A model generated the notes under the pieces. That model was not told the DNA's origin and searched no databases. It worked only from the letters and a program-made list of their open reading frames with translations. A stretch of 64,000 nucleotides of DNA, from assembly GCA_047638395.1 (NCBI GenBank), contig JBLIMV010000020.1:39101-103100 (forward strand), written 5' to 3'. The translations under genes and the position numbers were made by a program. This stretch comes from Paracoccaceae bacterium. Its GTDB lineage: Bacteria; Pseudomonadota; Alphaproteobacteria; MPNO01; UBA830. Positions 12,014-62,372 of the stretch are shown here, piece by piece. The stretch's first letter is position 1. Every line of letters begins with the position of its first letter.

Positions 12014-12018
12014 TAATT

Positions 12019-12969
12019 TTAAGCACCGAATTGGGGAAAGAGTTTGAGCGCGTTGTCGCGTTCGATTCCCTGCAGCACGTCGGGGTCGAGTCCCATTTCC
12101 TGCAGGGCCTTGATCGAGCCTGTCATGGTCGGTTCCGGTGCGAACGGATAGTCGCTGCCGAACAGCACGTGGTCTGGTGTGACCAGCTCGAACAGGCTGC
12201 GGAAGGCAAGCCAGTTCGCCGACAGCGCTGTGTCGTAATACAGCCGCTCCAGTTCGGGGACGACGCCGTTCGGTACGTGTTCCTTGAAGCCCGGGCGGCC
12301 CTGGAGGCGGCCGATGCGCTCGGCAAGGAACGGAATTGCCCCGCCGGCGTGGCTGAAAATGAAATTGATGTCCTGGCAACGCGCGAACGTGCCGTTGAAC
12401 AGCAGGCTGACCACGGCGCGCGTCGTATCGAACGGGAAATCCAGCGTCGCCGCGGGAATTTCCGGCTGGCACTGGTTGCAGGGTGCATTGGTCGGGTGGA
12501 AATAGACGGTCGCTTTCCGCCGGTTCAGTTCATCGAAGACCGGTGCAAAGGCCGGGTCGCCGGGGTAGCGGTTACCGTATGATGTCAGCAGGCCGATGCC
12601 GTCGGCCTTCAGTTCGTCCAGCGCATAGGCGATTTCGGCGAGGCTGGCGTCAACATCGGGCAGCGGCAGCGAGGCAAACACGCCGAACCGGGTAGGGTGG
12701 TCCTTCGTGATCTCGGCGGCATATTCGTTGCAGTGCCTGCAGAGATCGATGGTTTCCTGGGTTTCGCCGAACCACAGACCGGGCGCGGAGATCGATGTCA
12801 GCGCGGTCTGGATACCGTTGCGGTCCATCGCCTCGATCGACATTTCAGGCGTCCATTCCGGCGTCTTGCCCGCCAGGATCAGCGGGCCGATCCGGTCATC
12901 GCCGACGATCTCGACATAGTTCGGCGGCAGGATGTGGTGATGAACGTCGATGCGGTGGCAATTTTCCAT
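12019..12969 (-). CDS. Amidohydrolase-2 family protein (decarboxylase/hydratase-like), paralog 2
   Basis: IDVHHHILP N-terminal metal motif with TIM-barrel length. Clear paralog of 29828..30781 (MAGRIDVHHHVLPEFY...). Confidence 0.8.
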   Translation of the reverse strand: MENCHRIDVHHHILPPNYVEIVGDDRIGPLILAGKTPEWTPEMSIEAMDRNGIQTALTSISAPGLWFGETQETIDLCRHCNEYAAEITKDHPTRFGVFASLPLPDVDASLAEIAYALDELKADGIGLLTSYGNRYPGDPAFAPVFDELNRRKATVYFHPTNAPCNQCQPEIPAATLDFPFDTTRAVVSLLFNGTFARCQDINFIFSHAGGAIPFLAERIGRLQGRPGFKEHVPNGVVPELERLYYDTALSANWLAFRSLFELVTPDHVLFGSDYPFAPEPTMTGSIKALQEMGLDPDVLQGIERDNALKLFPQFGA

Positions 12970-45301: not shown

Positions 45302-45444
45302 GAAGGAAGATCCAACATTGGGGAAGAGGGAAGTGCCGAATTTTTGCCCATCCAAGGTTGCAGGTAAAGCCAAGAATCGGCCGGCATTTATGAACCGGGT
45401 GTAGTTCAGGTATACATTGTGGTGTCCGGACAGGGAGATATCAG

Positions 45445-46824
45445 ATGACGGCAAGGTTCAAGGCGAAATCAGATTCAAAGACGATACCGGTCACGCCGGT
45501 TGAACATGCTATCTTTGATTCGTGGCTGAAAAAAGAACCGCCGGCGATTCAAGGCTGGGTCCGGTCATCGGGCTTCCTGGCTAACCCCGGCCAGATCAGC
45601 CTGGTGGCGGGCAAGGACGGCAAGCTGTCGCGCGTGCTGTTCGGTGTGAAGGATCATGACGGGTTCTGGGATTACGCGGCGCTGCCCTCCGCTTTGCCGG
45701 CCGGTTCCTACCGGATCGATGCGCGTATGAGCGCGGCCGGGGCAACGGCGGCGGCGACTGGCTGGGCGCTTGGCGGGTACCGGTTTGAGCGGTATAAATC
45801 GACCAAGGGTAACAAGCTGCCGACACTCGTCTGGCCGGCCCGTGCCGACAAGGCACGGACGAATGCGATGGCGGAGTCTATTTCGCTGGTGCGCGACCTG
45901 ATCAATACACCCGCCGAAGATATGGGGCCGTCGCAACTGGCTGCCGCCGCCCGCACGCTCGGGCGCGGACACAAGGCCGACGTAAAGGTGATCACGGGCG
46001 ATGCCCTGCTCAAACAAAACTATCCGACAATCCATGCCGTCGGCCGCGCAAGCGACGATGCGCCCCGGCTGATCGATCTGCGCTGGGGCCGGAAATCCGA
46101 TCCCAAGGTGACGCTGGTCGGCAAGGGTGTCTGCTTCGATACCGGCGGTCTCGATCTCAAGCCTGCCGCTGGCATGCTGCGGATGAAGAAGGACATGGGC
46201 GGCGGGGCGCATGCGCTGGGGCTCGCTCACCTGATCATGGCGCTCAAACTGCGCGTACGCTTGCGGGTGCTGGTGCCGGCGGTCGAGAACAATGTTGCGG
46301 GTAACGCGTTTCGGCCGCTCGACGTGATCACAACGCGCAAGGGCGTCACGGTCGAGATCGGCAACACAGATGCCGAAGGACGCCTCGTGCTGTGTGATGC
46401 GCTGGCCGAGGCAGACAGCGAAGATCCCGACATGATCCTCGATTTCGCGACCCTGACCGGGGCCGCGCGGGTTGCGCTTGGCGCCGATCTGCCCGCGCTG
46501 TTCTGCAATAACGACAGCCTGGCCACCGATCTGGCCAAGGCGGGCGATTCCGTGAGCGATCCGATGTGGCGCCTGCCGCTTTGGCGGCCTTACCGGCAAA
46601 TGCTCGAAAGTAAGGTTGCGGACATCAATAACGTGTCCGAAGGTGGTTTTGGCGGGGCGATCACGGCAGCGCTCTACCTGCAGGAATTCGTGCGTGACAC
46701 CACGCCCTGGGCGCATCTCGACATGATGGCCTGGAATGTGTCGCCCCGGCCCGGCCGCCCCGCGGGCGGTGAGGCGCAATCTTTGCGCGCCGTGTTCGAT
46801 ATGCTGGAAAAACGTTACGGCTGA
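45445..46824 (+). CDS. Leucyl aminopeptidase family (M17) protein
   Basis: NTDAEGRL motif and M17 catalytic-domain length. SD sequence gggaga. Confidence 0.85.
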   Translation: MTARFKAKSDSKTIPVTPVEHAIFDSWLKKEPPAIQGWVRSSGFLANPGQISLVAGKDGKLSRVLFGVKDHDGFWDYAALPSALPAGSYRIDARMSAAGATAAATGWALGGYRFERYKSTKGNKLPTLVWPARADKARTNAMAESISLVRDLINTPAEDMGPSQLAAAARTLGRGHKADVKVITGDALLKQNYPTIHAVGRASDDAPRLIDLRWGRKSDPKVTLVGKGVCFDTGGLDLKPAAGMLRMKKDMGGGAHALGLAHLIMALKLRVRLRVLVPAVENNVAGNAFRPLDVITTRKGVTVEIGNTDAEGRLVLCDALAEADSEDPDMILDFATLTGAARVALGADLPALFCNNDSLATDLAKAGDSVSDPMWRLPLWRPYRQMLESKVADINNVSEGGFGGAITAALYLQEFVRDTTPWAHLDMMAWNVSPRPGRPAGGEAQSLRAVFDMLEKRYG

Positions 46825-46850: not shown

Positions 46851-47849
46851 CTATAACCAGTCGGGCGCCGGTAGGTTCTTCTCTTTGAGAAAAGCCGGAT
46901 TGAACAGTTTTGATTGATAGCGCTGGCCGCCGTCGCACAGCACCGTGACGATGGTGTGGCCGGGACCGAGCTCCTGCGCGAGCCGGATGGCACCCGCGAC
47001 GTTGATGCCGGATGATCCGCCAAGGCACAGGCCTTCGTCTTTCAGCAGGTCGAAGACAATTGGCAGAGCTTCTTCGTCCGCTATCTGGAACGGCAGGTCG
47101 ACCTTGGCCTGGGCCACATTTCCGGTGATCCTGCCCTGGCCGATACCTTCGGTGATGGAACTGCCCTCGCTCGCCAGTTCGCCGGTCTTGTAATAGCTGT
47201 ACATCGCGGCCCCCATCGGGTCGGCGAGGCCGATTTTTACATCCGCATTCTGTTCTTTCAGATATGTCGAAATTCCCGCCAGCGTGCCGCCGGTCCCCAT
47301 GGCGCAGATAAACCCGTCCACCTTGCCGTCGGTCTGTGCCCAGATTTCCGGGCCGGTCGACTGGTAGTGACCCTGCCAGTTGGCCGGGTTGTCCCACTGG
47401 TTCGCCCACAATGCGCCGCTGGGTTCCTTGGCCGCGTATTCGGCCGCCACGCGCTCCGACTGGCGGACATAGTTTTCGGGATCTTTGTACGGCTTCGCCG
47501 GGACCGGCATCAGTTCGGCGCCGCAGAGCCGCAGCATATCCATCTTTTCCTGGCTCTGGGTTTCGGGAATCACGATCACCGTACGGTACCCGCGGGCATT
47601 GGCGACAAGTGTGAGGCCGATGCCGGTATTGCCCGCCGTGCCTTCGACAATGACGCCGCCCGGCTGAAGCGTGCCCTGGCGCTCCGCATCGAGAATCATA
47701 TACAGCGCCGCGCGGTCCTTCACAGACCCGCCGGGGTTCAGGAATTCCGCCTTGCCGAGAATAGTGCAGCCGGTCAGCTCGGATGCTTTTTTCAGTTTGA
47801 TCAGCGGCGTGTTGCCGACGGAGTCTGAAAAGCCGTCACGGATATCCAT
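46851..47849 (-). CDS. cysK: Cysteine synthase / O-acetylserine sulfhydrylase family (PLP-dependent, CysK-like)
   Basis: PLP-lysine motif (GGSVKDRAAL) and glycine loop GTGGTLAG. Start at MDIRDGFSDSVGNTPLIKL, 44 codons into the track ORF. A paralog versus cystathionine beta-synthase cannot be excluded. Confidence 0.75.
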   Translation of the reverse strand: MDIRDGFSDSVGNTPLIKLKKASELTGCTILGKAEFLNPGGSVKDRAALYMILDAERQGTLQPGGVIVEGTAGNTGIGLTLVANARGYRTVIVIPETQSQEKMDMLRLCGAELMPVPAKPYKDPENYVRQSERVAAEYAAKEPSGALWANQWDNPANWQGHYQSTGPEIWAQTDGKVDGFICAMGTGGTLAGISTYLKEQNADVKIGLADPMGAAMYSYYKTGELASEGSSITEGIGQGRITGNVAQAKVDLPFQIADEEALPIVFDLLKDEGLCLGGSSGINVAGAIRLAQELGPGHTIVTVLCDGGQRYQSKLFNPAFLKEKNLPAPDWL

Positions 47850-47880
47850 GCCTGTACGTCCTTGGAAAATGTGTATGCGT

Positions 47881-48594
47881 TCAGCGTGCGTCGCCGATGC
47901 AGGGGTCGTCGGCAATGACCTCGGCCGGCGGTGGCTTGTCGCCCAGGTGGTCGAGCCGCGCCCGGAGCGTCTGAATTTCACCCATCATGCCTTCCAGCAC
48001 CTTGGCGACCGGATCAGATAAATCGCCATAGGGAATGCCATAAGCGGCGAATTCGTCATTTGCGCCCGAGCGATCCCGCGGCATCACCTGGCGGGCTGGG
48101 ATGCCGACCATGGTGACACCGGGCGGTACATCCGACAGCACGACGGCATTTGCGCCGATCAGCGCCTTTTCGCCCACCGTGATCGGGCCGAGAACCTGCG
48201 CACCGGACCCGACAACGACAAAGTCGCCGATGGTCGGGTGCCGCTTTTCCTGTTTCAGCGAAACGCCGCCAAGGGTGACGCCGTGATACAGCGTGACGTC
48301 GTTGCCGACCGTCGCCGTCTCACCGATCACCAGGCCCATACCGTGATCGATGAAGACCCGGCGACCGACTGTGGCGGCAGGGTGAATCTCGATCCCGGTC
48401 AGCATCCGCCCGAACTGAGAAACAAAGCGGGCGATAAATTTCAGGCCTGATTTCCATGCCATGTGCGCCACGCGGTGAAACAACAGCGCGTGAAAGCCCG
48501 GATAGCAGAAAAACACCTCGGCGCGGGAGCGCGCAGCCGGGTCTTTCTCCATGATGTTGCGGATGTCTTCACCAATCCGCCCGAAAACCGCCAT
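47881..48594 (-). CDS. cysE: Serine O-acetyltransferase
   Basis: N-terminal SATase domain plus hexapeptide-repeat left-handed beta-helix ([41 protein letters not shown]). Start at [11 protein letters not shown] after a gagg SD, 20 codons into the track ORF. Confidence 0.8.
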
Positions 48595-48759
48595 AAGACT
48601 GCCTCGTCCCAATTTATATACCCCGGACATGGCCCTTCGCGGGGAAAGGGTCAATGTGCAGATTTGGAAAAGATTTTTCCATTATTTGCCAAGCGGCGCG
48701 AAAAACGAGCGAATTACGAGACGGTTTCGGTAAAAACAGGAAAATATTGCGCGGCTGGC

Positions 48760-49236
48760 TTAGCGCAGGTGGTTCTCTTCGATGTCCCGGAGAAGGCCGC
48801 TGGAGGCGGCCTCAATCATGTCGAACACCCGTGCAAAGCCGTCGCCCGCGCCGTAATAAGGATCCGGCACGTCCGCGATACCGGTTTCGGGGGCGTAGTC
48901 CATGAACAGACGCAGGCGGTCGATATGGGCCGTGGGGCAGCTGGCGCGCAGGCTGTGCAAATGACTGGAATCCATTGCCATAATCAGATCGAACGCGGCG
49001 AAATCGTCGGCGCGGACGGCCCGTGCCCGCTGATCGCTGATATCGATGCCACGGGTGAGGGCCGTTTGCTGCGATCGGGCATCCGGGGCCTGGCCCTGAT
49101 GCCATGCGCCGGTTCCGGCAGAATCCGCGCTGATCCTGTTGTCGAGGTTGCGCGACCGCACGAGGTTGAGAAACACACCCTCAGCCGTAGGGGACCGGCA
49201 GATATTCCCGGAGCAGACGAACAGGATACGGAACAC
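48760..49236 (-). CDS. Low-molecular-weight protein-tyrosine phosphatase
   Basis: P-loop ILFVCSGNICRSP (CxGNxCRS) and DPYYG motif. 158 aa. Confidence 0.85.
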   Translation of the reverse strand: MFRILFVCSGNICRSPTAEGVFLNLVRSRNLDNRISADSAGTGAWHQGQAPDARSQQTALTRGIDISDQRARAVRADDFAAFDLIMAMDSSHLHSLRASCPTAHIDRLRLFMDYAPETGIADVPDPYYGAGDGFARVFDMIEAASSGLLRDIEENHLR

Positions 49237-49311
49237 GCATTGGCCTCTTGGTAATCAACGGTCGTATACTACACGTTTCCAGCCCCGAAAGTTCCAGCCG
49301 CCCGGCGTGTT

Positions 49312-49899
49312 ATGTCTGATTCGATTGAAACGCTTTTCCGCGATATCCGCGCCTGCACCCATTGTGCCGAACACCTGCCGATGGGGCCGCGCCCGGTGGT
49401 GCGGGGCACGGCGTCGGCGCGGGTATGCATCATCGGTCAGGCGCCCGGTGTGCGGGTCCACCGCAGCGGGGTCCCGTGGGATGACCCCAGCGGCAAGCGC
49501 CTGCGCGGCTGGCTCCAGGTCGATGACGAGACATTCTATAACGAGAACAATTTTGCCATTATTCCGGTCGGATTCTGCTATCCGGGCACGATGACAAACG
49601 GCGGCGATTTCCCCCCGCGTAAGGAATGCGCGCCGCTATGGCATGCGCCGGTGCTCGATGCGCTGAAAAACGTTGAGCTGACATTGCTGATCGGCAGCTA
49701 CGCTCAGGCCTACTACCTCGGCAAGACGCGCAAAAAGACAATGACCGAAACGGTCCGGTCGTGGCGTGAATATGGCCCCGACATTCTGCCGACGCCGCAT
49801 CCGAGCTGGCGGACGACGGGGTGGCAGAAAAAGAATCCATGGTTCGATGAAGAAATTCTGCCCGAATTGCGCCGCAAAGTGAAAGCGCTGATCACGTGA
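49312..49899 (+). CDS. Uracil-DNA glycosylase superfamily protein
   Basis: Motif A-like IIGQAPG and motif B-like TPHPSWRT (HPS). N-terminal Cys cluster CTHCAEHLP suggests a family 4/5-like Fe-S UDG, but the exact family is unassigned. Confidence 0.65.
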   Translation: MSDSIETLFRDIRACTHCAEHLPMGPRPVVRGTASARVCIIGQAPGVRVHRSGVPWDDPSGKRLRGWLQVDDETFYNENNFAIIPVGFCYPGTMTNGGDFPPRKECAPLWHAPVLDALKNVELTLLIGSYAQAYYLGKTRKKTMTETVRSWREYGPDILPTPHPSWRTTGWQKKNPWFDEEILPELRRKVKALIT

Positions 49900-50804
49900 G
49901 ATTGCCAGCGTTCTACACCGACCTGCCGGATGCCACCCGGGCAATCGTGCTGATGACATGCTCGGCGTTTTCCTATGCGCTGACCTTCGTCACCGTGCGG
50001 GAACTAACAGAGACTTTCTCGGTCTACCAGCTGGTCCTGTTCCGCGCCGCTATCGGGACAGCGGTGATGCTGCCTTGGCTCTGGCGCTCGGGTACTGGCG
50101 TGCTGCGGACAACGCGCTGGAAGCTATATGGCGTCCGTTCGCTCGCGGTATATTCCGGCAATCTCTGCTGGTTTTACGCCCTGGCCCATATCGCGCTTGC
50201 CGATGCGACCGCACTGTCGTTCCTGGCGCCCCTGTTTACAGCGTTGATCCTGGCGTTATGGGTGCGCGAGGATTTGAGCGGGCCACGTTTGACGGCGTTC
50301 TTTCTGGGGCTGGCCGGCGCATTCGTGATCATCCGCCCGGGTTTTGCCGAGGTTGGGACTGCGATGATCGCCATGCTCTATACGGCAGTTGTCTATGGCG
50401 GCGCGACGGCCGCGACCCGCGTGCTGGCCAAGACCGAAAACCCGAGTGCCGTCGTGTTTTACATGTTCGCAATCAATCTGCCGCTGGCGCTTGGTCCCGG
50501 CGTGTATCACTGGACGCCGCCCCTGCCATCGGCCTGGCTGCTGATCGGGGTGTTTGCCGTGCTCAGCCTGTATTCTCAGATTTTCATGACGCAGTCGCTG
50601 GCGCTCGCCGAGGCGGCCGTCGTGATGCCGACCTTCTATTTTCAGTTACCGCTGGCGGCCTTGTTCGGGTTCTTTCTGTTCGGGCAGGTGCCGGATATCT
50701 GGTTGGTTCCGGGCGCAATGCTGATTATCGGCGGGAGTTACTATTCGGTGTGGAGTGAAAGCAGGCGCCGCCGCGCAGTTGCCCGGGCAGAGGACGAGAG
50801 ATGA
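49896..50804 (+). CDS. EamA/DMT-family transporter, paralog 1 of 6
   Basis: 10-TM DMT protein with two EamA halves. The motifs RWKLYGVRS and IIRPGF are shared with the next gene, whose start it overlaps by 4 nt. Confidence 0.8.
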   Translation: MRLPAFYTDLPDATRAIVLMTCSAFSYALTFVTVRELTETFSVYQLVLFRAAIGTAVMLPWLWRSGTGVLRTTRWKLYGVRSLAVYSGNLCWFYALAHIALADATALSFLAPLFTALILALWVREDLSGPRLTAFFLGLAGAFVIIRPGFAEVGTAMIAMLYTAVVYGGATAATRVLAKTENPSAVVFYMFAINLPLALGPGVYHWTPPLPSAWLLIGVFAVLSLYSQIFMTQSLALAEAAVVMPTFYFQLPLAALFGFFLFGQVPDIWLVPGAMLIIGGSYYSVWSESRRRRAVARAEDER

Positions 50805-51682
50805 GCGGACAGGATCGACCACCCGCAGCCGGTGCGCTGGTCGGGTTGATGTGGATGACCGCCACAGCTGCCTGTTACGCGGCGAGCTACGTGGCGATGC
50901 GCCTGCTGTCGGATGACATCAGCATTTATGAACTCACATTCCTGCGCTCCGTCATTGCGTGTCTGTTTCTCGGGCCGTGGATTCTGGCGACCCGGCCGCG
51001 CGCGATCCGGGTGACGCGCTGGAAGCTCTACGGCATCCGGTCTGTGGCGACCTATGCGGCAATGATGTGTACGGTCTATGGCATCGTGCATGTGCAGATT
51101 GCCGATGTGACATCCTTGCTGCTGGCGTCACCGCTCTTCACGGTTCTGTTCGCCGCGGCTTTCCTGAAAGAGAAGGTCGGCTTTCATCGATGGATGGCCT
51201 TGCTCGCCGGAATCGCGGGCGCCCTTCTGATTATCCGGCCCGGTTTTACCGAGATCACCTTTGCCAGTTTCGCCGGATTGTTCGCCGCGTTTGGCTATGG
51301 CATCGCCAATGCGGGCACCAAGGCGCTGACCAGCACCGATCATCCCGACGCCGTGGCGTTCTGGATGTACGCGCTGATCATTCCGATCTCCGCGGTACCT
51401 GCCGCTATCCATTGGACGACGCCGGGCTGGAACCACATGCCGCTGATCGTTCTGCTCGGCCTGCTGACGATGCTGTCGCAATATTCCATGGCCCGCGCAT
51501 TCCGCGCGGCGGATACCAGCGTCGTGTTACCGGCCCATTATCTGCAGATGCCGTTTGCCGCGGGTCTCGCGTTTCTGATCCTGTCGCAGGTGCCGTCGAT
51601 CTGGGTATGGCCGGGGGCGGTGATCATCGCGGGTAGCGCCTATTACACCGTGATCAGGGAACGCCGGGCCGCCAACAGATAA
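50801..51682 (+). CDS. EamA/DMT-family transporter, paralog 2
   Basis: RVTRWKLYGIRS and LIIRPGFTE, clearly paralogous to 49896..50804. Confidence 0.8.
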   Translation: MSGQDRPPAAGALVGLMWMTATAACYAASYVAMRLLSDDISIYELTFLRSVIACLFLGPWILATRPRAIRVTRWKLYGIRSVATYAAMMCTVYGIVHVQIADVTSLLLASPLFTVLFAAAFLKEKVGFHRWMALLAGIAGALLIIRPGFTEITFASFAGLFAAFGYGIANAGTKALTSTDHPDAVAFWMYALIIPISAVPAAIHWTTPGWNHMPLIVLLGLLTMLSQYSMARAFRAADTSVVLPAHYLQMPFAAGLAFLILSQVPSIWVWPGAVIIAGSAYYTVIRERRAANR

Positions 51683-51725
51683 TTTTTGGGTTGCCAGAAT
51701 AACATTTAAGTAATAACTTAAATGA

Positions 51726-52070
51726 ATGAGCACGACAGCAATCACCCCCGATATTTTCCAGGCGGTCGCCGATCCCAATCGGCGCACGCTCCTCGATCTG
51801 TTGCTTGATGGCCCCCGGCCGGTGCAGGAACTCGGCGCGCATTTCGACATCTCGCTTGCCGCCATCTCCCAGCATCTGAAGGTCCTGCTCGAAGCGGGAC
51901 TTGTCTCCCGCGAAGCGCGCGGCAAGTACCGGTTCTACCACGCCGAACCGGCAGCGCTTCAGCAGGTGCATGACTGGACCGAGCAGTACCGGGAATTCTG
52001 GGAAGGCCGTCTCGATCGCCTTGGCAATTATCTTGATCAGCAAACACCCTCTGACACGGAGACCGAATAA
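51726..52070 (+). CDS. ArsR/SmtB-family HTH transcriptional regulator
   Basis: ADPNRRTLLDLLLDGPRPVQELGAHFDISLAAISQHLKVLLEAGLV is a winged-helix ArsR signature. The stop overlaps the start of the next gene. Confidence 0.8.
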   Translation: MSTTAITPDIFQAVADPNRRTLLDLLLDGPRPVQELGAHFDISLAAISQHLKVLLEAGLVSREARGKYRFYHAEPAALQQVHDWTEQYREFWEGRLDRLGNYLDQQTPSDTETE

Positions 52071-52474
52071 TGAAACTCGACCTCAACCTCGAACGCACTT
52101 TTCCCCATCCCGTCGACCGGGTCTGGGCGGCAATCTCCAGCGCCGACGCCATCGCACAATGGTTGTTTACCTGCGATTTCAAACCGCAGGTCGGCCACAA
52201 GTTCACCTTCCGGACGACCCCGCCCGAAGGATCGACCTGGCGCGGCTGGACCGATATCGAAGTTCTCGAATTCGACCCGCCGACGCGGATGGTCTGGGGC
52301 TGGGAAAGCGCCGAGATCGATGAGCCGACCCGGGTGATCTTCCAGCTGGAGCCGACACCGGAGGGCACACGGCTTAAACTTTCGCATGTAGGCGACAGCA
52401 CGGCAGACGACATTGCCAGCGTTTCCGGCGGCTGGCCCGGAAAACTCGATGCGCTTGTTGCGCATCTCGGATAA
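52070..52474 (+). CDS. SRPBCC-superfamily (AHSA1-like) protein
   Basis: 134 aa. The RTFPHPVDRVWAAISSADAIAQW start is typical of Aha1-like SRPBCC proteins commonly paired with ArsR regulators. Confidence 0.75.
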   Translation: MKLDLNLERTFPHPVDRVWAAISSADAIAQWLFTCDFKPQVGHKFTFRTTPPEGSTWRGWTDIEVLEFDPPTRMVWGWESAEIDEPTRVIFQLEPTPEGTRLKLSHVGDSTADDIASVSGGWPGKLDALVAHLG

Positions 52475-52489
52475 CTGAGGAGACAATCA

Positions 52490-53197
52490 ATGCAGACAGC
52501 CAATATTGTATCGCCCGAAGAATGGGTTGCTGCCTGCCGGGAGTTCCTGGTCAGGGAAAAAGCCTTCACCAAGGCGCGGGACGATCTCAGCACCGCAAGA
52601 CGCGAACTGCCCTGGGTTCGTGTCGAAAAAGACTATGTCTTTGGCGCATTGGGCGGTGAAAAATCGCTCGACGATCTGTTCGATGGCCGTGACCAGTTGA
52701 TGATCTATCACTTCATGCTCGGCCCCGGCTGGAAACAGGGCTGTCCCAGCTGTTCCTATCTGGCAGACCAGTTCAACCCCGCCGTCATCCATCTTGAGAA
52801 TCGCGACGTTTCCTTTGTCAGCGTGTCGCGGGCGCCGCTCGATGAGATAGAGGTTTTCCGCAAAAGGATGGGCTGGTCTTTTCCCTGGGTGTCGTCGTTC
52901 GATAGCGATTTTAACCGCGACTTCAACGTGACCTTTGGTCAGGCTGAAATCGATGCCGGCAAAACCTATTACAATTACAAGGTCACCCAGTTTCCCGAAC
53001 AGGAAGCTCCTGGGCTAAGCGTCTTCGCGAAGGGCGACGACGGCGCGATCTATCACACCTATTCAACCTACGCCCGCGGGCTCGATATCTTTATCACTGC
53101 CTATAACTTTCTCGACCATGCGCCGAAGGGCCGGGATGAGGGCGATCTGCCTTATTCGATGGCCTGGATTCGCCACCATGACCGCTACGGGGCATGA
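52490..53197 (+). CDS. DUF899 thioredoxin-like family protein
   Basis: CPSC motif within GPGWKQGCPSCSYLADQF and DUF899-typical length. Confidence 0.75.
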   Translation: MQTANIVSPEEWVAACREFLVREKAFTKARDDLSTARRELPWVRVEKDYVFGALGGEKSLDDLFDGRDQLMIYHFMLGPGWKQGCPSCSYLADQFNPAVIHLENRDVSFVSVSRAPLDEIEVFRKRMGWSFPWVSSFDSDFNRDFNVTFGQAEIDAGKTYYNYKVTQFPEQEAPGLSVFAKGDDGAIYHTYSTYARGLDIFITAYNFLDHAPKGRDEGDLPYSMAWIRHHDRYGA

Positions 53198-53315
53198 GGT
53201 CCGCATCATTTCTTTAAATTAAATTCCTGCAGGGTGTCGATCTTCCGACCCGTCATGCGTCATCATGATGAGAGCGCGGCTCTCGCTTGTTTTAACATGA
53301 CGAAGGATATCTAAA

Positions 53316-53654
53316 ATGCAGTATATCGCACTGATTTATAAAGATGAGGCCATCCCGGTGGATATGGAGCCGATGATGCAGGCCTATGGCGCCTTCAATC
53401 AGGAACTTGTCGCGGCAGGTCATTTCGTCGCTGGTGACGCGCTTCAGCCGGTGGCAACGTCGACCAGTGTGCGCGTCCGCGAAGGCAAGACCGAGGTGAC
53501 CGACGGCCCCTTTGCTGAAACCAAGGAACAGCTCGGCGGCTACTATCTGATGGAATGCGAGAATCTCGACCAGGCGGTCGAGTGGGCGGCCAAGATTCCG
53601 ACCGCCGAGACCGGCACCATCGAGGTTCGTCCAATTATGGCATATGATCTCTGA
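53316..53654 (+). CDS. YciI-like (DGPF domain) protein
   Basis: 112 aa. MQYIALIYKDEA... and the GPFAETKEQLGGYYLMECENLDQAVEWA region match the YciI family. Overlaps the next gene by 11 nt. Confidence 0.75.
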   Translation: MQYIALIYKDEAIPVDMEPMMQAYGAFNQELVAAGHFVAGDALQPVATSTSVRVREGKTEVTDGPFAETKEQLGGYYLMECENLDQAVEWAAKIPTAETGTIEVRPIMAYDL

Positions 53655-54900
53655 GCCGATCACGAAGCAGTCTGTTGATACGTATCTGGCCGGCGTCTTT
53701 CGGGAAGATGCCGGCCGGGTGCTCTCCGCGCTGATCGCACAGCTTCGGGATTTCGATCTTGCCGAAGAGGCACTGCAGGATGCTGTGACCGCCGGGTTAA
53801 CTGCGTGGCGCAGGGACGGAGTGCCAGAAAACGGGGCTGCTTGGTTGCTGACGGCCGCACGTCGCAAGGCCATTGACCGGCTCCGGCGTATTGCCGTCCG
53901 GGCGGCGCCGGAGAATGTTCAGGCAATCGTCGATGAGCTGGAGCAATCCGTTGCTGAACCGGAAGATGAACAGGATATTCCCGATGAACGCCTGCGGCTG
54001 ATCTTTACCTGTTGTAACCCGGCACTCAATCAGGCGGCCCAGGTCGCCTTGACGTTGCGCACCCTTTGCGGCCTGTCGACGCGGGAGATTGCGCGGGCGT
54101 TTCTGGTGCCGGAGCCGACGCTGGCCCAGCGGCTGGTCCGGGCGAAGGCTAAAATCAGCAAAGCCGGGATCCCATATAATGTGCCGGAGGCACGCCACCT
54201 GGCGGAACGACTGCAGGCGGTTCTGGCGACCGTCTATCTGATTTTTAATGAAGGATATGCGGCGACCGACGGGGACAGTCCCACGCGGGCGGATCTCTGC
54301 GAGGAAGCAATCCGCCTTGGCCGGTTACTGGTGGCGCTAACGCCCGAGGCAGAAGCGGGTGGGCTGCTGGCGTTGATGCTGTTGCATGATTCCCGGCGCT
54401 CGGCGCGTCATGACGCCGATGGTGGCATGATTGCCCTGGACGCACAGGATCGCCGCCAATGGGATAAAGTCCGTATCGAGGAAGGGACGCGACTGTTGCG
54501 CGCATCGCTCGGGCGGAACAGGCCCGGTCCTTATCAGGTGCAGGCTGCCATCAGCGCACTCCACGCCGAGGCTGATGATTTTGACTCAACAGATTGGTTG
54601 CAGATCGCGGGCCTCTACGCGGCGCTTGAACAGATATCTCCCTCGCCGGTCGTGACGCTGAACCGGGCAGTTGCTGTCTCGCATTACGGTTCGGTCGATG
54701 AGGCGCTCGTGCTACTGCAAACGATCGAGCTCGCGCTTGAAGGGTATCAGCCAATGCTGGCGGCGAAGGCGGATTTTCTGAGGCGGCTTGGCCGGGTTGT
54801 GGCGGCGCGGGCTGCCTATCGGGAGGCGCTGGCGCTCACCACAAATGCTGCAGAAAGAGGTTTTCTGGAGAAACAGCTCGATACGCTTGGATCGAATTAA
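53644..54900 (+). CDS. RNA polymerase sigma-70 family factor (ECF-like) with long C-terminal extension
   Basis: Sigma region 2 (DLAEEALQDAVTAGLTAWRR) and region 4 HTH (LRTLCGLSTREIARAFLVPEPTLAQRLVRAKAKI), plus an approx. 200-aa C-terminal domain. The YciI-sigma pairing is a conserved module. Confidence 0.8.
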   Translation: MISEPITKQSVDTYLAGVFREDAGRVLSALIAQLRDFDLAEEALQDAVTAGLTAWRRDGVPENGAAWLLTAARRKAIDRLRRIAVRAAPENVQAIVDELEQSVAEPEDEQDIPDERLRLIFTCCNPALNQAAQVALTLRTLCGLSTREIARAFLVPEPTLAQRLVRAKAKISKAGIPYNVPEARHLAERLQAVLATVYLIFNEGYAATDGDSPTRADLCEEAIRLGRLLVALTPEAEAGGLLALMLLHDSRRSARHDADGGMIALDAQDRRQWDKVRIEEGTRLLRASLGRNRPGPYQVQAAISALHAEADDFDSTDWLQIAGLYAALEQISPSPVVTLNRAVAVSHYGSVDEALVLLQTIELALEGYQPMLAAKADFLRRLGRVVAARAAYREALALTTNAAERGFLEKQLDTLGSN

Positions 54901-55298
54901 TCGTCCGCGTTCGCCTCAAGCCGTTCCATGTCGTCATCCGACAGGCCGAAATGATGGCCGATTTCATGAATCAAGACGTGGCGGACTAGGTGCGACAGGT
55001 CTTCCTCAGTCTCGCTCCAGTAATCGAGCAGCGGGCGGCGATACAGGAAGATCATGTCGACCACCGGTGCCGCGCCCGCATCCTTTTCGCCCACCGGCAC
55101 ACCGCTATAGAGTCCCATCAGGTCGAACGGGCTTTGCAGGCCCATCTCCATCACCGTTTCGGGATCCGGAAAATCGTCAACGCGAAACACAATCCCGGTC
55201 GTCAACGCACGGAAAGTGTCCGGCAGGGTTTCGAACGCTGTCCGCGCGATGGCCTCGAGGTCGTCAAGCGACGGGGCGGTGGTGAATTCTTTGCTCAT
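54897..55298 (-). CDS. Zincin-like small metallopeptidase family protein (HExxH)
   Basis: LIHEIGHHFGLSDDDMERLE is the HEIGHH motif of the small Zn-dependent protease family. Start at MSKEFTT, 12 codons inside the TTG-initiated track ORF. Confidence 0.65.
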   Translation of the reverse strand: MSKEFTTAPSLDDLEAIARTAFETLPDTFRALTTGIVFRVDDFPDPETVMEMGLQSPFDLMGLYSGVPVGEKDAGAAPVVDMIFLYRRPLLDYWSETEEDLSHLVRHVLIHEIGHHFGLSDDDMERLEANADD

Positions 55299-55372
55299 GG
55301 CGCCATGATTACCCGGCCTTGATCGCCCGGCCAAGGCGCATCACGTTAGGCTGGTGATAAACAGGAGGTTTC

Positions 55373-55684
55373 ATGGTCGATAAACTCACCGGTACAGCGC
55401 GTACCAAAGCGCTGGCACCTCTCAAAGGCTGGAAAAAAACCCGCGGGCGCGATGCGCTTTCCAAGGTCTATAAATTTGCTGACTTCAATGAAGCGTTCGG
55501 TTTTATGACGCGAGTGGCGATTAAGGCCGATCAGATGGATCACCATCCCGAATGGTCGAATGTCTATAACAACGTTTCCATCACCCTGACTACGCATGAT
55601 GCCGACGGTATATCGGAGCGCGATGTCGTGCTGGCAAAGTTCATCGACCGGATCGCCGGGCGGAAAGCCGTTACGGCGAAATAG
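55373..55684 (+). CDS. phhB: Pterin-4-alpha-carbinolamine dehydratase
   Basis: Sequence ...[38 protein letters not shown] matches the PCD/DCoH signature ([EQ]..HHP.[WI]). SD caggagg. Confidence 0.85.
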
Positions 55685-55693
55685 ATACGGGGC

Positions 55694-56581
55694 TCAGGAC
55701 TTGCCGTGTTTTGCTTCGTGCCGGGTGATGTAGAGCGTCGCGGATACGATGATCCCGGCCCCGACCCAGGTCCATAAATCGGGTACCTCGGTAAAGATGA
55801 AATAGCCGGCAAGGGCCGCGAAGACGAGGCGGATGTATTCCATCGTGCCCATCAGGCTGGACTCTCCGACCGAAAACCCGCGGACGAAAAAATTCATGCC
55901 GATGGCCGTAAACGTCGCGATCAGGCAGAGCAGCACCCATTCCTGCGGTGTCGGGTCGACCCAGACATAGGCTGCCGGTCCGGCGAAGATGATGATACCG
56001 AATATGTGATACCAGAACAGGATCGTGCCCGGCGGATCGTCACGACCAAGAATGCGGATGATGATAAGGCCGGATGAAAACAGCAACGCGGTGACAAGCG
56101 CGATGCCCCAGGCGATATCCACTTCGCCGCCAAAGGGCCGCATCATCACAATCACGCCGGTAAACCCGATAAGCGTTGCGCACCAGCGGTGAACACCGAC
56201 GACCTCTTTCAGAATAAAGATCGCAAGGATCGTCAGGAACAGCGGTCGCGTGAAGGTCATAGCCGTCGCGTCGGCAAGCTGCAGATGGATAACCGTATAG
56301 AAAATGCCTGCCTGTCCGACTGTCGCCAGCAGGGCACGGAAAAAATGCAGCTTCAGGCGTTTGGTCTGCAGTTTCGCGCGACCGGTGCGGATAAACAGCG
56401 GGGCCAGCAGGACAAAGCCGACGCCATAGCGGAAGATCGACATCTGCGCCGGGTGGATCCGGTCACCGGTGAACTTGACCACGATATCCGTCAGCACGAA
56501 GAACGCCGTCCCCATGATCACGAACAGCGCGCCGCGAATATTCGGCGGCAGGGCGTGGAATTTTTCGATATATCCGCTCAT
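55694..56581 (-). CDS. EamA/DMT-family transporter, paralog 3
   Basis: 10-TM protein with MMRPFGG and EVPDLWTWVGAGIIV motifs shared with paralogs 4-6. Confidence 0.8.
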   Translation of the reverse strand: MSGYIEKFHALPPNIRGALFVIMGTAFFVLTDIVVKFTGDRIHPAQMSIFRYGVGFVLLAPLFIRTGRAKLQTKRLKLHFFRALLATVGQAGIFYTVIHLQLADATAMTFTRPLFLTILAIFILKEVVGVHRWCATLIGFTGVIVMMRPFGGEVDIAWGIALVTALLFSSGLIIIRILGRDDPPGTILFWYHIFGIIIFAGPAAYVWVDPTPQEWVLLCLIATFTAIGMNFFVRGFSVGESSLMGTMEYIRLVFAALAGYFIFTEVPDLWTWVGAGIIVSATLYITRHEAKHGKS

Positions 56582-56593
56582 GCGATCCGTTTT

Positions 56594-57478
56594 TTATTTT
56601 TTGCGGCCCTGGCGCGTCAGCCAGACGGCGGAAACAAAGATGATCGTTCCGCCGACCCACGTCCAGACGTCTGGAAATTCGGCAAAAACCAGCCAGCCAA
56701 GCAGGGATGCCCATATCAGGCGGGTAAAGTTGAACGGCATGGCGATGGAAATATCGGCGGCCTGAATACCCCGGTTATAGGTGCGCTGCAGGATCACGCT
56801 CGTCGCGCCGATAAAGACGAAAAGGCCCCATTCCTCCAGGCTCGGCATGCGCCAAACAATCAGTGTCGGCACGAGCAGGATCAGCGTTTGTGTGACGAAC
56901 AGCCAGGCGGCGATGGTATCCGGCGGGTCGGTGCGGACCAGCGTCTTGATCATGATCGAGACGAGCGCGCCTGCGACTGCAGAGCCCAATGCGTAAGCCA
57001 TGCCGAGATTGAATTCAGCGAAGCCCGGCCGGACCACCAGGATAGCGCCGACGAACCCCAGGGAAATCGCCAGCCAGCGTTTGCGCCCGGCAACTTCGCC
57101 CAGCACGAACCCGGCAATGGCCGAGCCAATCACCGGCTGCAGGAAATTGATCGCCGACATATCGGCAATCGGGATCAGCGCGACGGCGGCAAAAAGCAGG
57201 GTAACATTGGTCGACGACATGAAACCGCGGATGACATGCTTGCCGATTTGTTTTGTGCGCATCGCGCCCAGACCGACATTCATCAGCCAGGGCATCATGA
57301 ACAGGATGGCGAAAGCGTTGCGCAGAAAGGCGATCTGGAACACTTCGATGCTGGGCGCCAGATAGCGGCCGATCGCGATTGAAATCACATAGGTGATCGC
57401 GGAGATCGACATCCAGACGCCCGATCTGACCGGGCCGGGCAGGGCAGCGAAACGTAGCGTTAGGGCAGCGATGGTCAT
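56594..57478 (-). CDS. EamA/DMT-family transporter, paralog 4
   Basis: Start at MTIAALTLRF, 50 codons into the track ORF. The longer form would overlap the upstream paralog. VVRPGFAE and EFPDVWTWVGGTIIF motifs. Confidence 0.75.
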   Translation of the reverse strand: MTIAALTLRFAALPGPVRSGVWMSISAITYVISIAIGRYLAPSIEVFQIAFLRNAFAILFMMPWLMNVGLGAMRTKQIGKHVIRGFMSSTNVTLLFAAVALIPIADMSAINFLQPVIGSAIAGFVLGEVAGRKRWLAISLGFVGAILVVRPGFAEFNLGMAYALGSAVAGALVSIMIKTLVRTDPPDTIAAWLFVTQTLILLVPTLIVWRMPSLEEWGLFVFIGATSVILQRTYNRGIQAADISIAMPFNFTRLIWASLLGWLVFAEFPDVWTWVGGTIIFVSAVWLTRQGRKK

Positions 57479-57479
57479 G

Positions 57480-58418
57480 CTATTTCGGCGCCGATGTGGT
57501 GGCTGTTGCAGCGGCAGCCCGTTCACGTGCTTTGCGGGCTTCGCGCTGGGCAATATAGACGGTCGAGGCGAAAATGAGTGCGCCGCCGATCGCGGTATAG
57601 ATTGATGGTATCTCTGAAAATAGCACATAGCCGAACACGGCAGCGACGATCAGTCGTGAAAAATCCATCGGCAGAATGATCGAGGCATCGGCTGCCGCAT
57701 ATCCGCGTGACATTGCGCGTTGTCCGAGCGTGCCGGCGAGCCCCGTGAAGGACAGCCAGCCGATCTGCTCCCAGGTCGGCGTTTCCCACACGAATAGTGC
57801 CAGGACCAGCATCACCGGCGTGGTGAACAGAACCATGTACATGGTGATGGTATCGGGGGATTCGGTGCGCGACAGATAACGGATAAGGATCGCCGCCGCC
57901 GCCCCCGCGATCGAGGCGACAAAGACGGCGGCAAGGCCCAGATTAACAGCCTCGAAGCCGGGGCGAACCATCACCAGCACGCCGAGAAAACCGATCCCGA
58001 GCGCCGTCCAGCGCCGTTGGCCGACAATCTCTCCCAGAAAGACGATGGCGAAGACGGTCCCGTAAAGCGGGCGCGTGAACATGATCGCCACGGCATCGGC
58101 CAGTGGGATCTCGCCAAGCGCGTAGAAAAACCCCAGAGATCCGATGGTGGTGGCGACAGCGCGGCCGAGAAACCAGGAAGTCTTGGTGGTTTTCAAACCC
58201 TGCAGGCGCGTGCGGATCAGCCAGGGCGCCATAAAGACAAAACCGAGGCCGATGCGAAAAAACGCGATGATAAAAGTGTGCACATCCGCCGATAGATGGC
58301 GGATCGTTGCCGCCATGGCCGTCAGACAAACAGCGGCGATCAGTATCCAGATGGTCCCCTGGACCGGGCCGGAACGCCCGGCGAACCATAGGGCGATGGC
58401 ACCGGTACCCGCGCTCAT
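57480..58418 (-). CDS. EamA/DMT-family transporter, paralog 5
   Basis: MVRPGFEA and EIPSIYTAIGGALIF motifs. The start overlaps the stop of paralog 6 (ATGA). Confidence 0.8.
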   Translation of the reverse strand: MSAGTGAIALWFAGRSGPVQGTIWILIAAVCLTAMAATIRHLSADVHTFIIAFFRIGLGFVFMAPWLIRTRLQGLKTTKTSWFLGRAVATTIGSLGFFYALGEIPLADAVAIMFTRPLYGTVFAIVFLGEIVGQRRWTALGIGFLGVLVMVRPGFEAVNLGLAAVFVASIAGAAAAILIRYLSRTESPDTITMYMVLFTTPVMLVLALFVWETPTWEQIGWLSFTGLAGTLGQRAMSRGYAAADASIILPMDFSRLIVAAVFGYVLFSEIPSIYTAIGGALIFASTVYIAQREARKARERAAAATATTSAPK

Positions 58419-59314
58419 AACGCCTTTTTTCTATCACGGCGGGATTCTGTGCGTCCCGCAAAGATCGACGAACAGAAGATCACCACCGCGCCGGCAATGG
58501 TCCATAGATCGGGCAGTTCGGAGAAAATCACAAAGCCGATGGCGATGGCAAAGGGCAGACGGGTGAAATCGAACGGCGCGATGGAACCGACATCGCCGGT
58601 CGCGAAGGCGCGGGAATACAGGCGCTGCGCGGTCGTCGAGCCGGCGCCGAGCAGGAAGCCCCAGAACCATTGCTCGGGCGTCGGCCATTCCCAGACGAAC
58701 AGCACGGCCACGAAGGCGAAGGGCAGCATGTAAATCGACTGATAGATCGCCGCTTTGTCCGGTGTATCGGTCCGCAGCATCACTTTCAGGATCATGGCGG
58801 AAAAAGCGATGCACACGCCGCCGCCGATCACCATAAAGACGCCGATATTCACTTCCTGGAAACCCGGGCGGACGACGATCAGGGTCCCGGCGAACCCTGC
58901 CGCCAGCGCGATCCACCTCGTGGCGTGCGCCGGTTCTTTCAGCAGCAAAACGCCCGCCAGCGCGATAAACAGCGGAAACGTGAAAGAGATCGCGGTCGCA
59001 TCGCCGATCGGCAGGAGCCCGAGGCTACCGAACCAGCCATACATGGCGACCGTGCTCAAAAATCCGCGGGTCACATAGAGTTTTGTGTGCGACGTCCGCA
59101 ACACGCCGACGCCGGACCGCATCAGCCAGGGCAGCATGATGACGATGCCGAACACGGCGCGGAAAAACGATATCTCGATAAAATGGAGGTCTTTGGACAG
59201 ATAACGCACGATCCCGGCCTGCCCCGCGAAAAACACGGCGCTCAGCGTCATCCAGATGGCGCCTTGCACAGAAGGCGACAGCCGGGCGAAAGTAGTTTTT
59301 ACGGACTGGATCAT
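58415..59314 (-). CDS. EamA/DMT-family transporter, paralog 6
   Basis: Start at MIQSVKTTF, 39 codons into the track ORF. VVRPGFQE and ELPDLWTIAGAVVIF motifs. Confidence 0.75.
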   Translation of the reverse strand: MIQSVKTTFARLSPSVQGAIWMTLSAVFFAGQAGIVRYLSKDLHFIEISFFRAVFGIVIMLPWLMRSGVGVLRTSHTKLYVTRGFLSTVAMYGWFGSLGLLPIGDATAISFTFPLFIALAGVLLLKEPAHATRWIALAAGFAGTLIVVRPGFQEVNIGVFMVIGGGVCIAFSAMILKVMLRTDTPDKAAIYQSIYMLPFAFVAVLFVWEWPTPEQWFWGFLLGAGSTTAQRLYSRAFATGDVGSIAPFDFTRLPFAIAIGFVIFSELPDLWTIAGAVVIFCSSIFAGRTESRRDRKKAL

Positions 59315-59353
59315 TGGCGGGCCATTAAACGATCTACCGCAGGGGAGGCATAG

Positions 59354-60587: not shown

Positions 60588-60719
60588 ATAAAAAATATCT
60601 ACGAGGTCTAAAATTTACTTTGACCCGTATCCGGAACAGTAGCATTTTCCCGACGGATTAATTTCGTCGGTGACGTGTTTCACGTGCGGCTTTGCGCCTA
60701 TTTGGAGGCCTATTTAAGA

Positions 60720-62372
60720 ATGTCTGGTGGTTTTTCTACTGGCCTGTTCCGGGCTGGTCTGTTGTCTGTTGGAATAGCTCTGACGGCCGGTTTTGTCGTC
60801 CCCGGTGCCTCTGCACAGGGGACGGAGCTGTCTGACCGGGGCAAGGCGGCGGATAAGAATAAGAACGGCGTCATCGACCGCAACGAAGCGGGCGGTCCGT
60901 TGAAGTCCAATTTCGATGATATGGACTGCAACAAGTCCGGCACGCTCGATGGCGCGGAAATCAGCGGATTTTTCACCGGCGTCGAATGCCCTAAACCTGC
61001 CGCTGCCGCGCCCGCCGCAACACCGGTCATGGCGAATAAATCTGTGCCGCCGTTGTCTGACCGCGGCAGGGCGGCAGACAAGAACAAGAACGGTGTCATC
61101 GGGCGCGACGAGGCGGGAGGCCCGCTGAAGTCCAATTTCGATGATATGGACTGCAATAAATCCGGCACGCTCGACGGTGGGGAGATCAAAGGCTTCTTCA
61201 CCGGTGAGGAATGCCCGAAACCGGTTGCAGGGACCCCGGCGACTGGTGCGGCGCCGAAGACGGCAGCCAAACCTTCGGCGGCGCCCGGTAAAAAGGCCGG
61301 CGGCCCCCGCGCACGCGCGGTCAGGGTTGATGCCGTGATCGTTGAGCCCAAATCCCAGACCTACCCCGTGATCGGCCGGCTGGTTGCCCAGCGGACCGGC
61401 AACGTGGCTGCCCGTATCAACGGCGCGGTTGTTGAAATGAACGTAAATGTCGGTGATCGCGTCAAAAAGGGGGATATTCTTGCTGTCCTGGCGATAGAGC
61501 GGCTGACCGCGCAGCGCGACAAATATGCCGCCGCGTTATCCACCCGGCGCGCGATGGTGCAGACCGCTCAGGCCGAAGCATCGAAGACCGCGCAGGAACT
61601 TCGCCGGATGTCGAACCTCAAGACATCTTCAGCGTTTTCCCGCGCGCGTTACGAAGACCTTCAGCGTGACGTCGATGCCCGCCAGGCAACACTGGTAGAG
61701 CGTCGCTCACAGCAGAAAGAGGCGCAGGCCGAGCTTGATCAGGTGGCTATCGACCTGAATAACGGTCGCATTCGCGCACCGTATGACGGTGTCGTCAGCG
61801 AAAAGCACACGGAAATCGGCTCTTACGTAAATGTCGGGAACCCGGTCGTCACGCTGATCAGCGATACTGAGATCGAGGTCGAGGCCGAAGTGCCATCCGA
61901 TCGCATCGCCGGTTTGACAACGGGCAGGGTCGTGCGTTTCCGTCTTGATGACGGAACGGATCACCGGGCAATCGTCCGGTCCATTATTCCGCGCGAAAAC
62001 GCCCGCACACGGACACGCCCGGTGCGGTTTACGCCGACATTCGGCGAGAAATCATCCCGCTTTGCCATCAACCAAAGCGTGACTGTCCTGGTGCCTATCG
62101 GGAAGATCCAGGAGGTCGTGACGGTTCACAAGGACGCCATCGTCCATCGTGGTCCGAACCGGGTCGTGAGCATCGTGCGGAAGGGCAAGGCCTTTCCGCG
62201 CCAGGTAACGCTCGGCGTGGCGGTCGGGAACCGGTATATCGTCGAAAAAGGGCTGAAGGCGGGCGACGTGGTCGTGACCCATGGCAACGAAACGCTGCCG
62301 CCGGGCGCCCAGGTTCGCATTCTGACCGGTGGTTCCCCGCGCGCCAATGGCGAGAAGACACAGACCAACTAG
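60720..62372 (+). CDS. RND efflux membrane-fusion (periplasmic adaptor, HlyD family) protein with N-terminal duplicated EF-hand pairs
   Basis: The C-terminal 330 aa form a typical MFP: lipoyl and beta-barrel segments around GDRVKKGDILAVL, a coiled-coil hairpin, RAPYDGVVSE and PVVTLIS. The N-terminal 200 aa carry two copies of an approx. 75-aa unit. Each unit has two canonical 12-residue EF-hand loops, DKNKNGVIDRNE (or DKNKNGVIGRDE) and DCNKSGTLDGAE (or DCNKSGTLDGGE), in the pattern D-x-N-x-[NS]-G-x-[IL]-x-x-x-E. The RND pump gene follows. Confidence 0.8.
   Translation: MSGGFSTGLFRAGLLSVGIALTAGFVVPGASAQGTELSDRGKAADKNKNGVIDRNEAGGPLKSNFDDMDCNKSGTLDGAEISGFFTGVECPKPAAAAPAATPVMANKSVPPLSDRGRAADKNKNGVIGRDEAGGPLKSNFDDMDCNKSGTLDGGEIKGFFTGEECPKPVAGTPATGAAPKTAAKPSAAPGKKAGGPRARAVRVDAVIVEPKSQTYPVIGRLVAQRTGNVAARINGAVVEMNVNVGDRVKKGDILAVLAIERLTAQRDKYAAALSTRRAMVQTAQAEASKTAQELRRMSNLKTSSAFSRARYEDLQRDVDARQATLVERRSQQKEAQAELDQVAIDLNNGRIRAPYDGVVSEKHTEIGSYVNVGNPVVTLISDTEIEVEAEVPSDRIAGLTTGRVVRFRLDDGTDHRAIVRSIIPRENARTRTRPVRFTPTFGEKSSRFAINQSVTVLVPIGKIQEVVTVHKDAIVHRGPNRVVSIVRKGKAFPRQVTLGVAVGNRYIVEKGLKAGDVVVTHGNETLPPGAQVRILTGGSPRANGEKTQTN
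60829..61224 (+). repeat. Intragenic tandem duplication (two approx. 170-bp units at about 85% identity) encoding the EF-hand pair modules
   Basis: Unit 1 (about 60829..60998) and unit 2 (about 61055..61224) share long identical runs, for example gaagtccaatttcgatgatatggactgcaa and atccggcacgctcga. Confidence 0.7.

Follow-up and report, generated by a model that had tools for sequence, protein, structure and literature searches.

The locus described here raises the question of why six genes for EamA-domain carriers from the superfamily of drug/metabolite transporters (DMT) should be packed within 9.4 kb of a bacterial genome. The genes, which we call E1 to E6, lie in a stretch of 64,000 nucleotides from Paracoccaceae bacterium (assembly GCA_047638395.1, contig JBLIMV010000020.1, positions 39,101 to 103,100 of the forward strand); this whole stretch is referred to as the window, and coordinates are positions within it unless a relative is named. 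An earlier note on this DNA had offered two answers, a substrate-diversified export island for thiol or amino-acid metabolites or a recent amplification under selection. We consider it fairly probable that the six genes are an anciently diverged battery of paralogs, encoding independently working, substrate-diversified DMT carriers that have been differentially retained. The six genes are the following, each product carrying two copies of the PF00892 domain.

49896-50804, plus strand: E1, 302 amino acids (aa), GTG start (PF00892 E-value 7e-28)
50801-51682, plus strand: E2, 293 aa (PF00892 E-value 2e-27)
55694-56581, minus strand: E3, 295 aa, last gene of the minus-strand operon (PF00892 E-value 3e-29)
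56594-57478, minus strand: E4, 294 aa, start at 57478
57480-58418, minus strand: E5, 312 aa
58415-59314, minus strand: E6, 299 aa, first gene of the minus-strand operon

In a Pfam scan the two EamA stretches of each protein scored 96-102 bits against a cutoff of 28.2, which places all six in the DMT superfamily as carriers of the EamA/DME type with 10 transmembrane segments (TM). The same six genes, with the same lengths, were called independently on two metagenome contigs containing the region (98-100% identical proteins), and a hidden Markov model built from E1-E6 detected no further EamA open reading frame (ORF) in the 64 kb window. The cluster of six full-length transporters described in the earlier note is therefore real. 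With six EamA genes in 9.4 kb and none elsewhere in the window, their density is far beyond chance; for comparison, Bacillus subtilis has eight EamA-family genes in its entire genome (PMC11005379). The motifs that had been described as common to the six proteins are so only in part: five of the proteins have RPGF and four have E.PD.W, whereas RWKLYG is confined to E1 and E2.

To collect relatives of the locus, GTDB species genomes were scanned with E5, which yielded 36 loci; these and the loci reached in further searches are designated here by L numbers. The close loci belong to uncultured marine metagenome-assembled genomes (MAGs) labelled Alphaproteobacteria UBA830 or Rhodospirillaceae, and all genes of the window were mapped onto them by tblastn. 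The gene call for E4 was reproduced on L001. L003-L014, L018 and L023 (about 15 related MAGs) contain an ortholog of each transporter, 66-95% identical and with the gene order unchanged, and relatives with identities from 95% down to ~70% have all six.

The six proteins are between 27 and 39% identical to each other. E1 and E2 share 39%, E4, E5 and E6 share 35-38%, and E3 is the most divergent, with 27-31% identity to the other five. These values lie above the 25% line below which the earlier note would have seen background similarity, and the genes are real paralogs. At the DNA level the only recurrence at the period of the genes (~900 nt) is a 52-nt stretch of 63-73% similarity. Such low protein identity, combined with the lack of a DNA repeat, indicates that the duplications are ancient. 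A neighbor-joining tree resolved six ortholog groups, each with 200 of 200 bootstrap replicates, and joined E1 and E2 as sisters in 199 of 200; on this tree E1 and E2 appear as the products of the one duplication that is well resolved. Recent tandem amplification under selection for gene dosage is exceedingly improbable in the face of these data. It would explain the head-to-tail genes, their ~900 nt period and the overlapping stop and start codons, but the paralogs are far less similar to each other than the orthologs are across the clade, no repeat extends beyond the 52 nt just mentioned, and each paralog has its own ortholog group, with orthologs down to 66% identity. We regard it as refuted by the identities, the repeat scan, the ortholog groups and the presence of all six genes across relatives. 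It was also considered whether the genes follow a pairing scheme, with the first genes of the pairs resembling each other, and the identity matrix contains no such pattern.

The paralogs are under purifying selection. In comparisons with seven relatives the ratio of nonsynonymous to synonymous substitution (dN/dS) is 0.05-0.19 for all six genes, the same range as for cysK, pepA and the UDG gene. E1 evolves fastest (0.12-0.19), and the ratio is 0.05-0.11 for E2 and 0.055-0.14 for E3. In eighteen columns of the alignment the residue is at least 90% fixed inside each ortholog group and differs from group to group, next to 16 columns without variation among the six; a TM8 column of the first set holds Arg in E4-E6 and Ile, Tyr or Asn in E1-E3. 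The fully supported groups, the low dN/dS and the group-fixed residues are compatible with the substrate-diversified island, the half of the original proposal that survives; the other half, recent amplification, does not.

The genes around the transporters are conserved as well. The order found in relatives is MFP, CMD and SDR; E6, E5, E4 and E3; PCD and Zincin_1; a variable slot; E2, E1 and UDG; and then LMWP, cysE and cysK where these are present, and pepA. The conserved genes that concern us below are located in the window as follows.

46851-47849, minus strand: cysK (NF007989, 560 bits, above cutoff)
47881-48594, minus strand: cysE (TIGR01172, 242 bits, above cutoff)
49312-49899, plus strand: UDG-superfamily gene, 195 aa, first gene of the plus-strand operon (PF03167, E-value 1.4e-24)
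54897-55298, minus strand: Zincin_1 metallopeptidase-like gene, conserved spacer between the transporter operons (PF06262, E-value 1e-34)
55373-55684, plus strand: PCD, pterin-4a-carbinolamine dehydratase, convergent with E3 (NF002020, 159 bits, above cutoff)

In every relative PCD is next to the final array gene and so forms a conserved array boundary, and Zincin_1 lies beside PCD in most relatives, including L015, L044, L047, L049 and L050. The check on synteny suggested in the earlier note thus came out in favour of a true cluster: related genomes keep the transporters together, even more compactly than here. In L014, a long-read MAG polished with "pilon", E4, E3 and SDR (10932-12773 and 8278-9067) are each split by frameshifts. 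These are probably assembly indels rather than real pseudogenes, and L014 is therefore not counted as a case of gene loss. A literature search on tandem EamA arrays and on UBA830 found nothing relevant; the UBA830 matches that were examined were prefix matches to UBA8309.

The greater compactness of the relatives is due to the slot between Zincin_1 and E2, which in the window holds a five-gene segment outside the conserved cluster (51726-54900, plus strand), identified with Pfam.

51726-52070, plus strand: ArsR
52070-52474, plus strand: SRPBCC/AHSA1
52490-53197, plus strand: DUF899
53316-53654, plus strand: YciI
53644-54900, plus strand: ECF-type sigma factor with DUF6596

The distance from Zincin_1 to E2 is 3220 bp in the window, compared with 14-187 bp in L004, L005, L006, L008, L010 and L011, where the span of all six transporter genes is 5.4-6.3 kb. 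The ArsR-SRPBCC-DUF899 and YciI-sigma genes are thus a lineage-specific insertion. Other loci carry other cargo: sigma, YciI and ArsR in L003, DUF899 alone in L015, Lon together with Usp in both L047 and L049, and in L014 an unidentified segment of 2.2 kb. The slot, 51683-54896 in the window and occupied also in L003, L007, L014, L015, L047 and L049, is a hot spot of cargo variation; ORF lists, annotation and repeat scan showed neither mobile-element genes nor flanking repeats at it. The earlier note had named the neighbouring genes (cysK, cysE, ArsR, SRPBCC, DUF899, YciI, sigma, Zincin_1 and PCD) as Pfam and NCBIfam do. Its statement that the array encloses stress modules is valid for this genome and its nearest relatives, whereas elsewhere the slot is empty or differently filled.

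The variability of this slot could be taken to mean that the transporters themselves were acquired independently and gathered at a recombination hot spot, as an accessory or mobile island, rather than descending vertically as paralogs. The poor support for the deep nodes of the tree points the same way, as do E5 homologs outside the clade at 41-45% identity, which is above the identity of E5 to E4 and E6. Nevertheless, there is no anomaly of composition (GC 0.57-0.62 throughout), no integrase, tRNA-linked or repeat boundary was seen in the ORF lists, Pfam/NCBIfam matches and repeat scans of the stretch, and the gene order has been kept across a deep clade. The neighbor-joining tree also places the six proteins in one DMT subfamily together with a few singleton homologs from other lineages (L019-L021, L025 and L030), with a modest bootstrap of 121 of 200. 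Independent acquisition is therefore an unlikely origin for the array.

The transporters are arranged in two operons. E1 overlaps E2 by 4 nt (ATGA), E6 overlaps E5 likewise by 4 nt (ATGA), the stop of E5 and the start of E4 are separated by 1 nt, and E4 and E3 by 12 nt. The tandem overlaps proposed earlier thus exist for the plus-strand pair, and on the minus strand for E6/E5 only, the other two junctions there being gaps. The UDG stop codon and the E1 start codon also share 4 nt (GTGA, 49896-49899), so that the plus-strand operon is UDG-E1-E2. The NTGA overlap is retained for E6-E5 in 14 of 14 relatives, for UDG-E1 in 8 of 10, and for E1-E2 in all relatives examined. The 1-nt gap between E5 and E4 is mostly kept, and E4 and E3 are separated by ~10-14 nt or, in a more distant subclade, joined by an NTGA overlap. 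Conservation of these overlaps and short gaps implies that translational coupling is a maintained feature. As for the UDG protein, no NCBIfam model names it and it is widely conserved (7962 homologs at E <= 1e-10 among 8000 candidates scored). It is NTGA-coupled to a DMT gene both in this clade and in L046 (4001-5544; 4-nt overlap), which is a separate lineage, and it adjoins an EamA gene in L047 (10001-11503), L048 (10001-11528) and L049; the coupling of a DNA-repair-type UDG to a DMT transporter is an odd pairing.

Upstream of the minus-strand operon there is little room for control elements.

59315-59353, no strand assigned: divergent intergenic region between SDR and E6, 39 bp between the start codons

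Any promoter of the E6-E5-E4-E3 operon must consequently sit in these 39 bp or within the SDR gene, and the promoters of SDR and E6 must overlap each other or coding regions. Nearly all relatives keep this spacing at 37-41 bp; L014, with its frameshifted SDR gene, has 341 bp. The intergenic alignment has a conserved GCGGTA core; no sigma-70 consensus was found in this region. A promoter and terminator scan of 48.5-60.7 kb gave counts at or below shuffled expectation, the sole notable site being a terminator-like hairpin at 53269-53285, after DUF899. Rfam detected no RNA family in the whole window, so that there is no riboswitch clue to the substrate.

Conserved coupling might mean that neighbouring products assemble with each other, E1 with E2, E6 with E5 and E4 with E3, as heterodimers. 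The NTGA overlaps have been kept over long divergence and the genes come mostly in even-numbered runs (2, 4, 2). Paired transporters of the SMR family (EbrAB/YkkCD-type), which are likewise adjacent, co-translated paralogs of one superfamily, are heterodimers, and some solved relatives among DMT/SLC35 proteins, with structures of TPT and Vrg4, are reportedly dimers. However, SMR subunits are 4-TM half-units that need a partner, whereas E1-E6 are complete 10-TM units in which every protein already holds both inverted repeats of the full DMT fold, and their neighbours have been lost independently. L010 has E2 without E1, L012 has E4 without E3, L044 and L050 have E6-E4 without E5, and L015 has E6-E5 without E4; in L049 there is an odd run of seven. 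Hetero-oligomers are accordingly a quite improbable explanation, a shade more so than independent acquisition.

The same losses bear on the favoured reading of independently working carriers. Members have disappeared while their neighbours were retained: E1 in L010, where a remnant is left, E3 in L012, both E5 and E3 in L044 and L050, and both E4 and E3 in L015. Loss of single members with retention of their neighbours argues for a modular, independent function of each.

When the homologs of UDG and E4 were traced outward, the same syntenic locus was found in a wider group, where the size of the array varies. L044 and L050, on contigs of 4.3-4.5 Mb, have SDR, then an E6-like and an E4-like gene, then PCD, Zincin and UDG, with cysE-cysK in L050; the E4 orthologs (65-67% identity) lie directly beside the E6 orthologs. 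L015 has only E6 and E5 at the locus. In L046 the UDG gene overlaps a single E1/2-type gene, and L048 has a UDG-EamA pair together with two genes of the E3 type. In L047 and L049 a run of seven EamA genes lies beside PCD-Zincin, with an E6-like gene by SDR and an E1/2-type gene by UDG. This gives nine DMT genes within 18 kb, which are 26-44% identical to each other and comprise 50-55% identical orthologs of E3, E4, E5 and E6 and four further paralogs. The tandem count between SDR and PCD-Zincin thus runs from 2 (L015, L044 and L050) to 7 (L049), while E5-like homologs outside the group (43-45% identity) are singletons in unrelated contexts. Array sizes of 2, 4(+2) and 7(+2) at one locus indicate an ancient array that has undergone differential retention or expansion. 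In L049 an IclR-family regulator (8067-8870) lies directly upstream of the seven-gene array on the same strand; none is found at the equivalent position in the clade of the window.

A bolder interpretation, which we hold to be improbable, is that the site between SDR and PCD-Zincin might be a long-lived nursery for the birth and death of DMT genes (2, 4 or 7 in tandem, plus the UDG-coupled one), in which coupling would be functionally required, for stoichiometry or mixed oligomers, and that the whole could be a combinatorial system tuned to the marine pool of dissolved metabolites, as opposed to a collection of unrelated carriers; the conserved coupling of UDG to a DMT gene could also mean that UDG acts on a transported small molecule and not on DNA.

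The predicted fold is that of known carriers. E5, the only one of the six modelled, gave an AlphaFold2 (AF2) model from a 61-sequence alignment with pLDDT 92.5, pTM 0.87 and ten long helices. PDB sequence searches with E5 and with a six-sequence profile returned zero matches. Foldseek comparison of the model with the PDB retrieved SLC35B1, TPT (triose-phosphate translocator), LicB and YddG at TM-scores of 0.65-0.73, and also Vrg4 and CST; overall the TM-scores are mostly 0.57-0.73, at 12-19% identity. The top PDB matches are all DMT transporters, with E-values of 5e-8 or weaker. As modelled, E5 has the canonical DMT fold. YddG of Starkeya novella (5I20), an exporter of aromatic amino acids, has the same 10-TM fold (TM-score to E5 0.65-0.72, 17-19% identity); E1-E6 are not its orthologs, since E1 and E5 reach ~23 bits against a cutoff of 300 for NF050091 and the other four do not match. 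Rickettsia Sam (S-adenosylmethionine (SAM) uptake) and RibN (riboflavin) are alphaproteobacterial DMT importers whose names, where attached to some E5 homologs, are mutually inconsistent pipeline labels. In B. subtilis the "sleeping beauty" amino-acid exporters of the EamA family (AexA and others) are regarded as promiscuous exporters of metabolites that differ in their substrates (PMC11005379). That genome too has multiple EamA paralogs, but its eight genes were described one locus at a time, each beside its own regulator (PMC11005379), whereas here six genes (nine in L049) are in translationally coupled operons whose ancestral layout has no dedicated regulator.

The most specific proposal for the substrate came from cysE and cysK, said in the earlier note to lie immediately upstream: the DMT genes might export O-acetylserine, cysteine or thiols derived from CysE and CysK. 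Both genes are genuine and within 1.3 kb of the UDG-E1-E2 operon, and cysK, cysE, cysI and cysG recur beyond UDG in L015, L046, L047, L048 and L050. They are in fact on the opposite strand, 1.24 kb off, behind two unrelated genes, those for the LMW phosphatase (LMWP) and UDG. Between LMWP and pepA they are absent from L009-L013, L018 and L023 (LMWP-pepA distance 29-598 bp), and these loci retain at least four transporters, with all six in L009, L011, L013 and L023; the exceptions are L010 with an E1 remnant only, L012 without E3, and L018, which is cut within E5. Conversely, cysE-cysK is present in L015 and L050, both of which are without E1 and E2. This distribution is what inherited synteny would be expected to give, and on it the pair would belong to an old syntenic block with no functional tie to them. 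Escherichia coli EamA (YdeD; TC 2.A.7.3, DME family), which exports cysteine and O-acetylserine, belongs to the same superfamily, with ~300 aa and two PF00892 repeats; it is a single gene beside the mar locus, and the MG1655 protein gave no significant BLASTP match to E1-E6 (best E-value 0.042, 24% identity over 127 aa). Because the Pfam name EamA spans the whole superfamily, the cysteine/O-acetylserine reading stands on a family name and inherited synteny. With no significant match to EamA/YdeD, no equivalog, and cysE-cysK missing where the transporters persist, we consider a cysteine or thiol export island improbable.

These observations can be assembled into the following scheme for the battery of independent carriers. 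The six genes are anciently diverged members of one subfamily of 10-TM, DME-type DMT carriers with two EamA repeats. They are arranged as a pair of convergent operons with translational coupling, UDG-E1-E2 and E6-E5-E4-E3, between which ancestrally there were only PCD and Zincin_1. Each protein alone would most likely act as a secondary carrier, in which two inverted 5-TM repeats make up a central cavity and transport proceeds by alternating access, and the locus as a whole may move several small polar metabolites of different kinds. The arrays of 2, 4(+2) and 7(+2) go back to ancient duplication and to retention that differed among lineages, ArsR-SRPBCC-DUF899 and YciI-sigma were inserted later into the gap between the operons, and cysE-cysK are neighbours through inherited synteny. 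The data show the anatomy, the age, the purifying selection, the synteny and the fold, and from them independent function and a difference in substrates are inferred.

Several points weigh against this scheme. None of the six reaches an NCBIfam equivalog; for TIGR00950 (2A78, carboxylate/amino acid/amine transporter) they score 30-67 bits against a cutoff of 230, and the automatic names of homologs conflict ("riboflavin transporter", "SAM uptake transporter", "DMT family transporter"). Branching among E3-E6 is poorly supported, E4, E5 and E6 being grouped in 30 of 200 replicates, so that duplication in situ is not separable from ancient assembly. Finally, the conserved translational coupling would fit a fixed stoichiometry, i.e. 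hetero-oligomers, as well.

Two other genes of the window deserve mention. An RND membrane-fusion adaptor of the HlyD/CusB type (MFP; 60675-62372, plus strand) has an N-terminal extension with a match to EF-hand_1 (34 bits, above cutoff) and a near-identical duplicated unit of ~57 aa (LSDRG.AADKNKNGVI...DCNKSGTLDG.EI), for which Tandem Repeats Finder (TRF) reported nothing. The EF-hand signal is also present in the relatives L002 and L050; it is unusual for an efflux adaptor to carry a calcium-binding domain. A gene for a multi-pass membrane protein of 476 aa with DUF898 (44024-45454, minus strand, E-value 4e-55) adjoins that for leucyl aminopeptidase.

The locus is an unusually dense and conserved arrangement of ordinary DMT genes, without sign of a new mechanism. 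It carries a caution for annotation, as the Pfam name "EamA" suggests a cysteine export for which the sequences give no support. Among bacterial transporters, carriers of the DMT/EamA type belong to the most numerous and the least characterised, and six distinct paralogs (up to nine in relatives) under purifying selection provide a natural panel for the determinants of substrate specificity within one subfamily. The array could also point to the metabolites that are exchanged by abundant uncultured marine heterotrophs.

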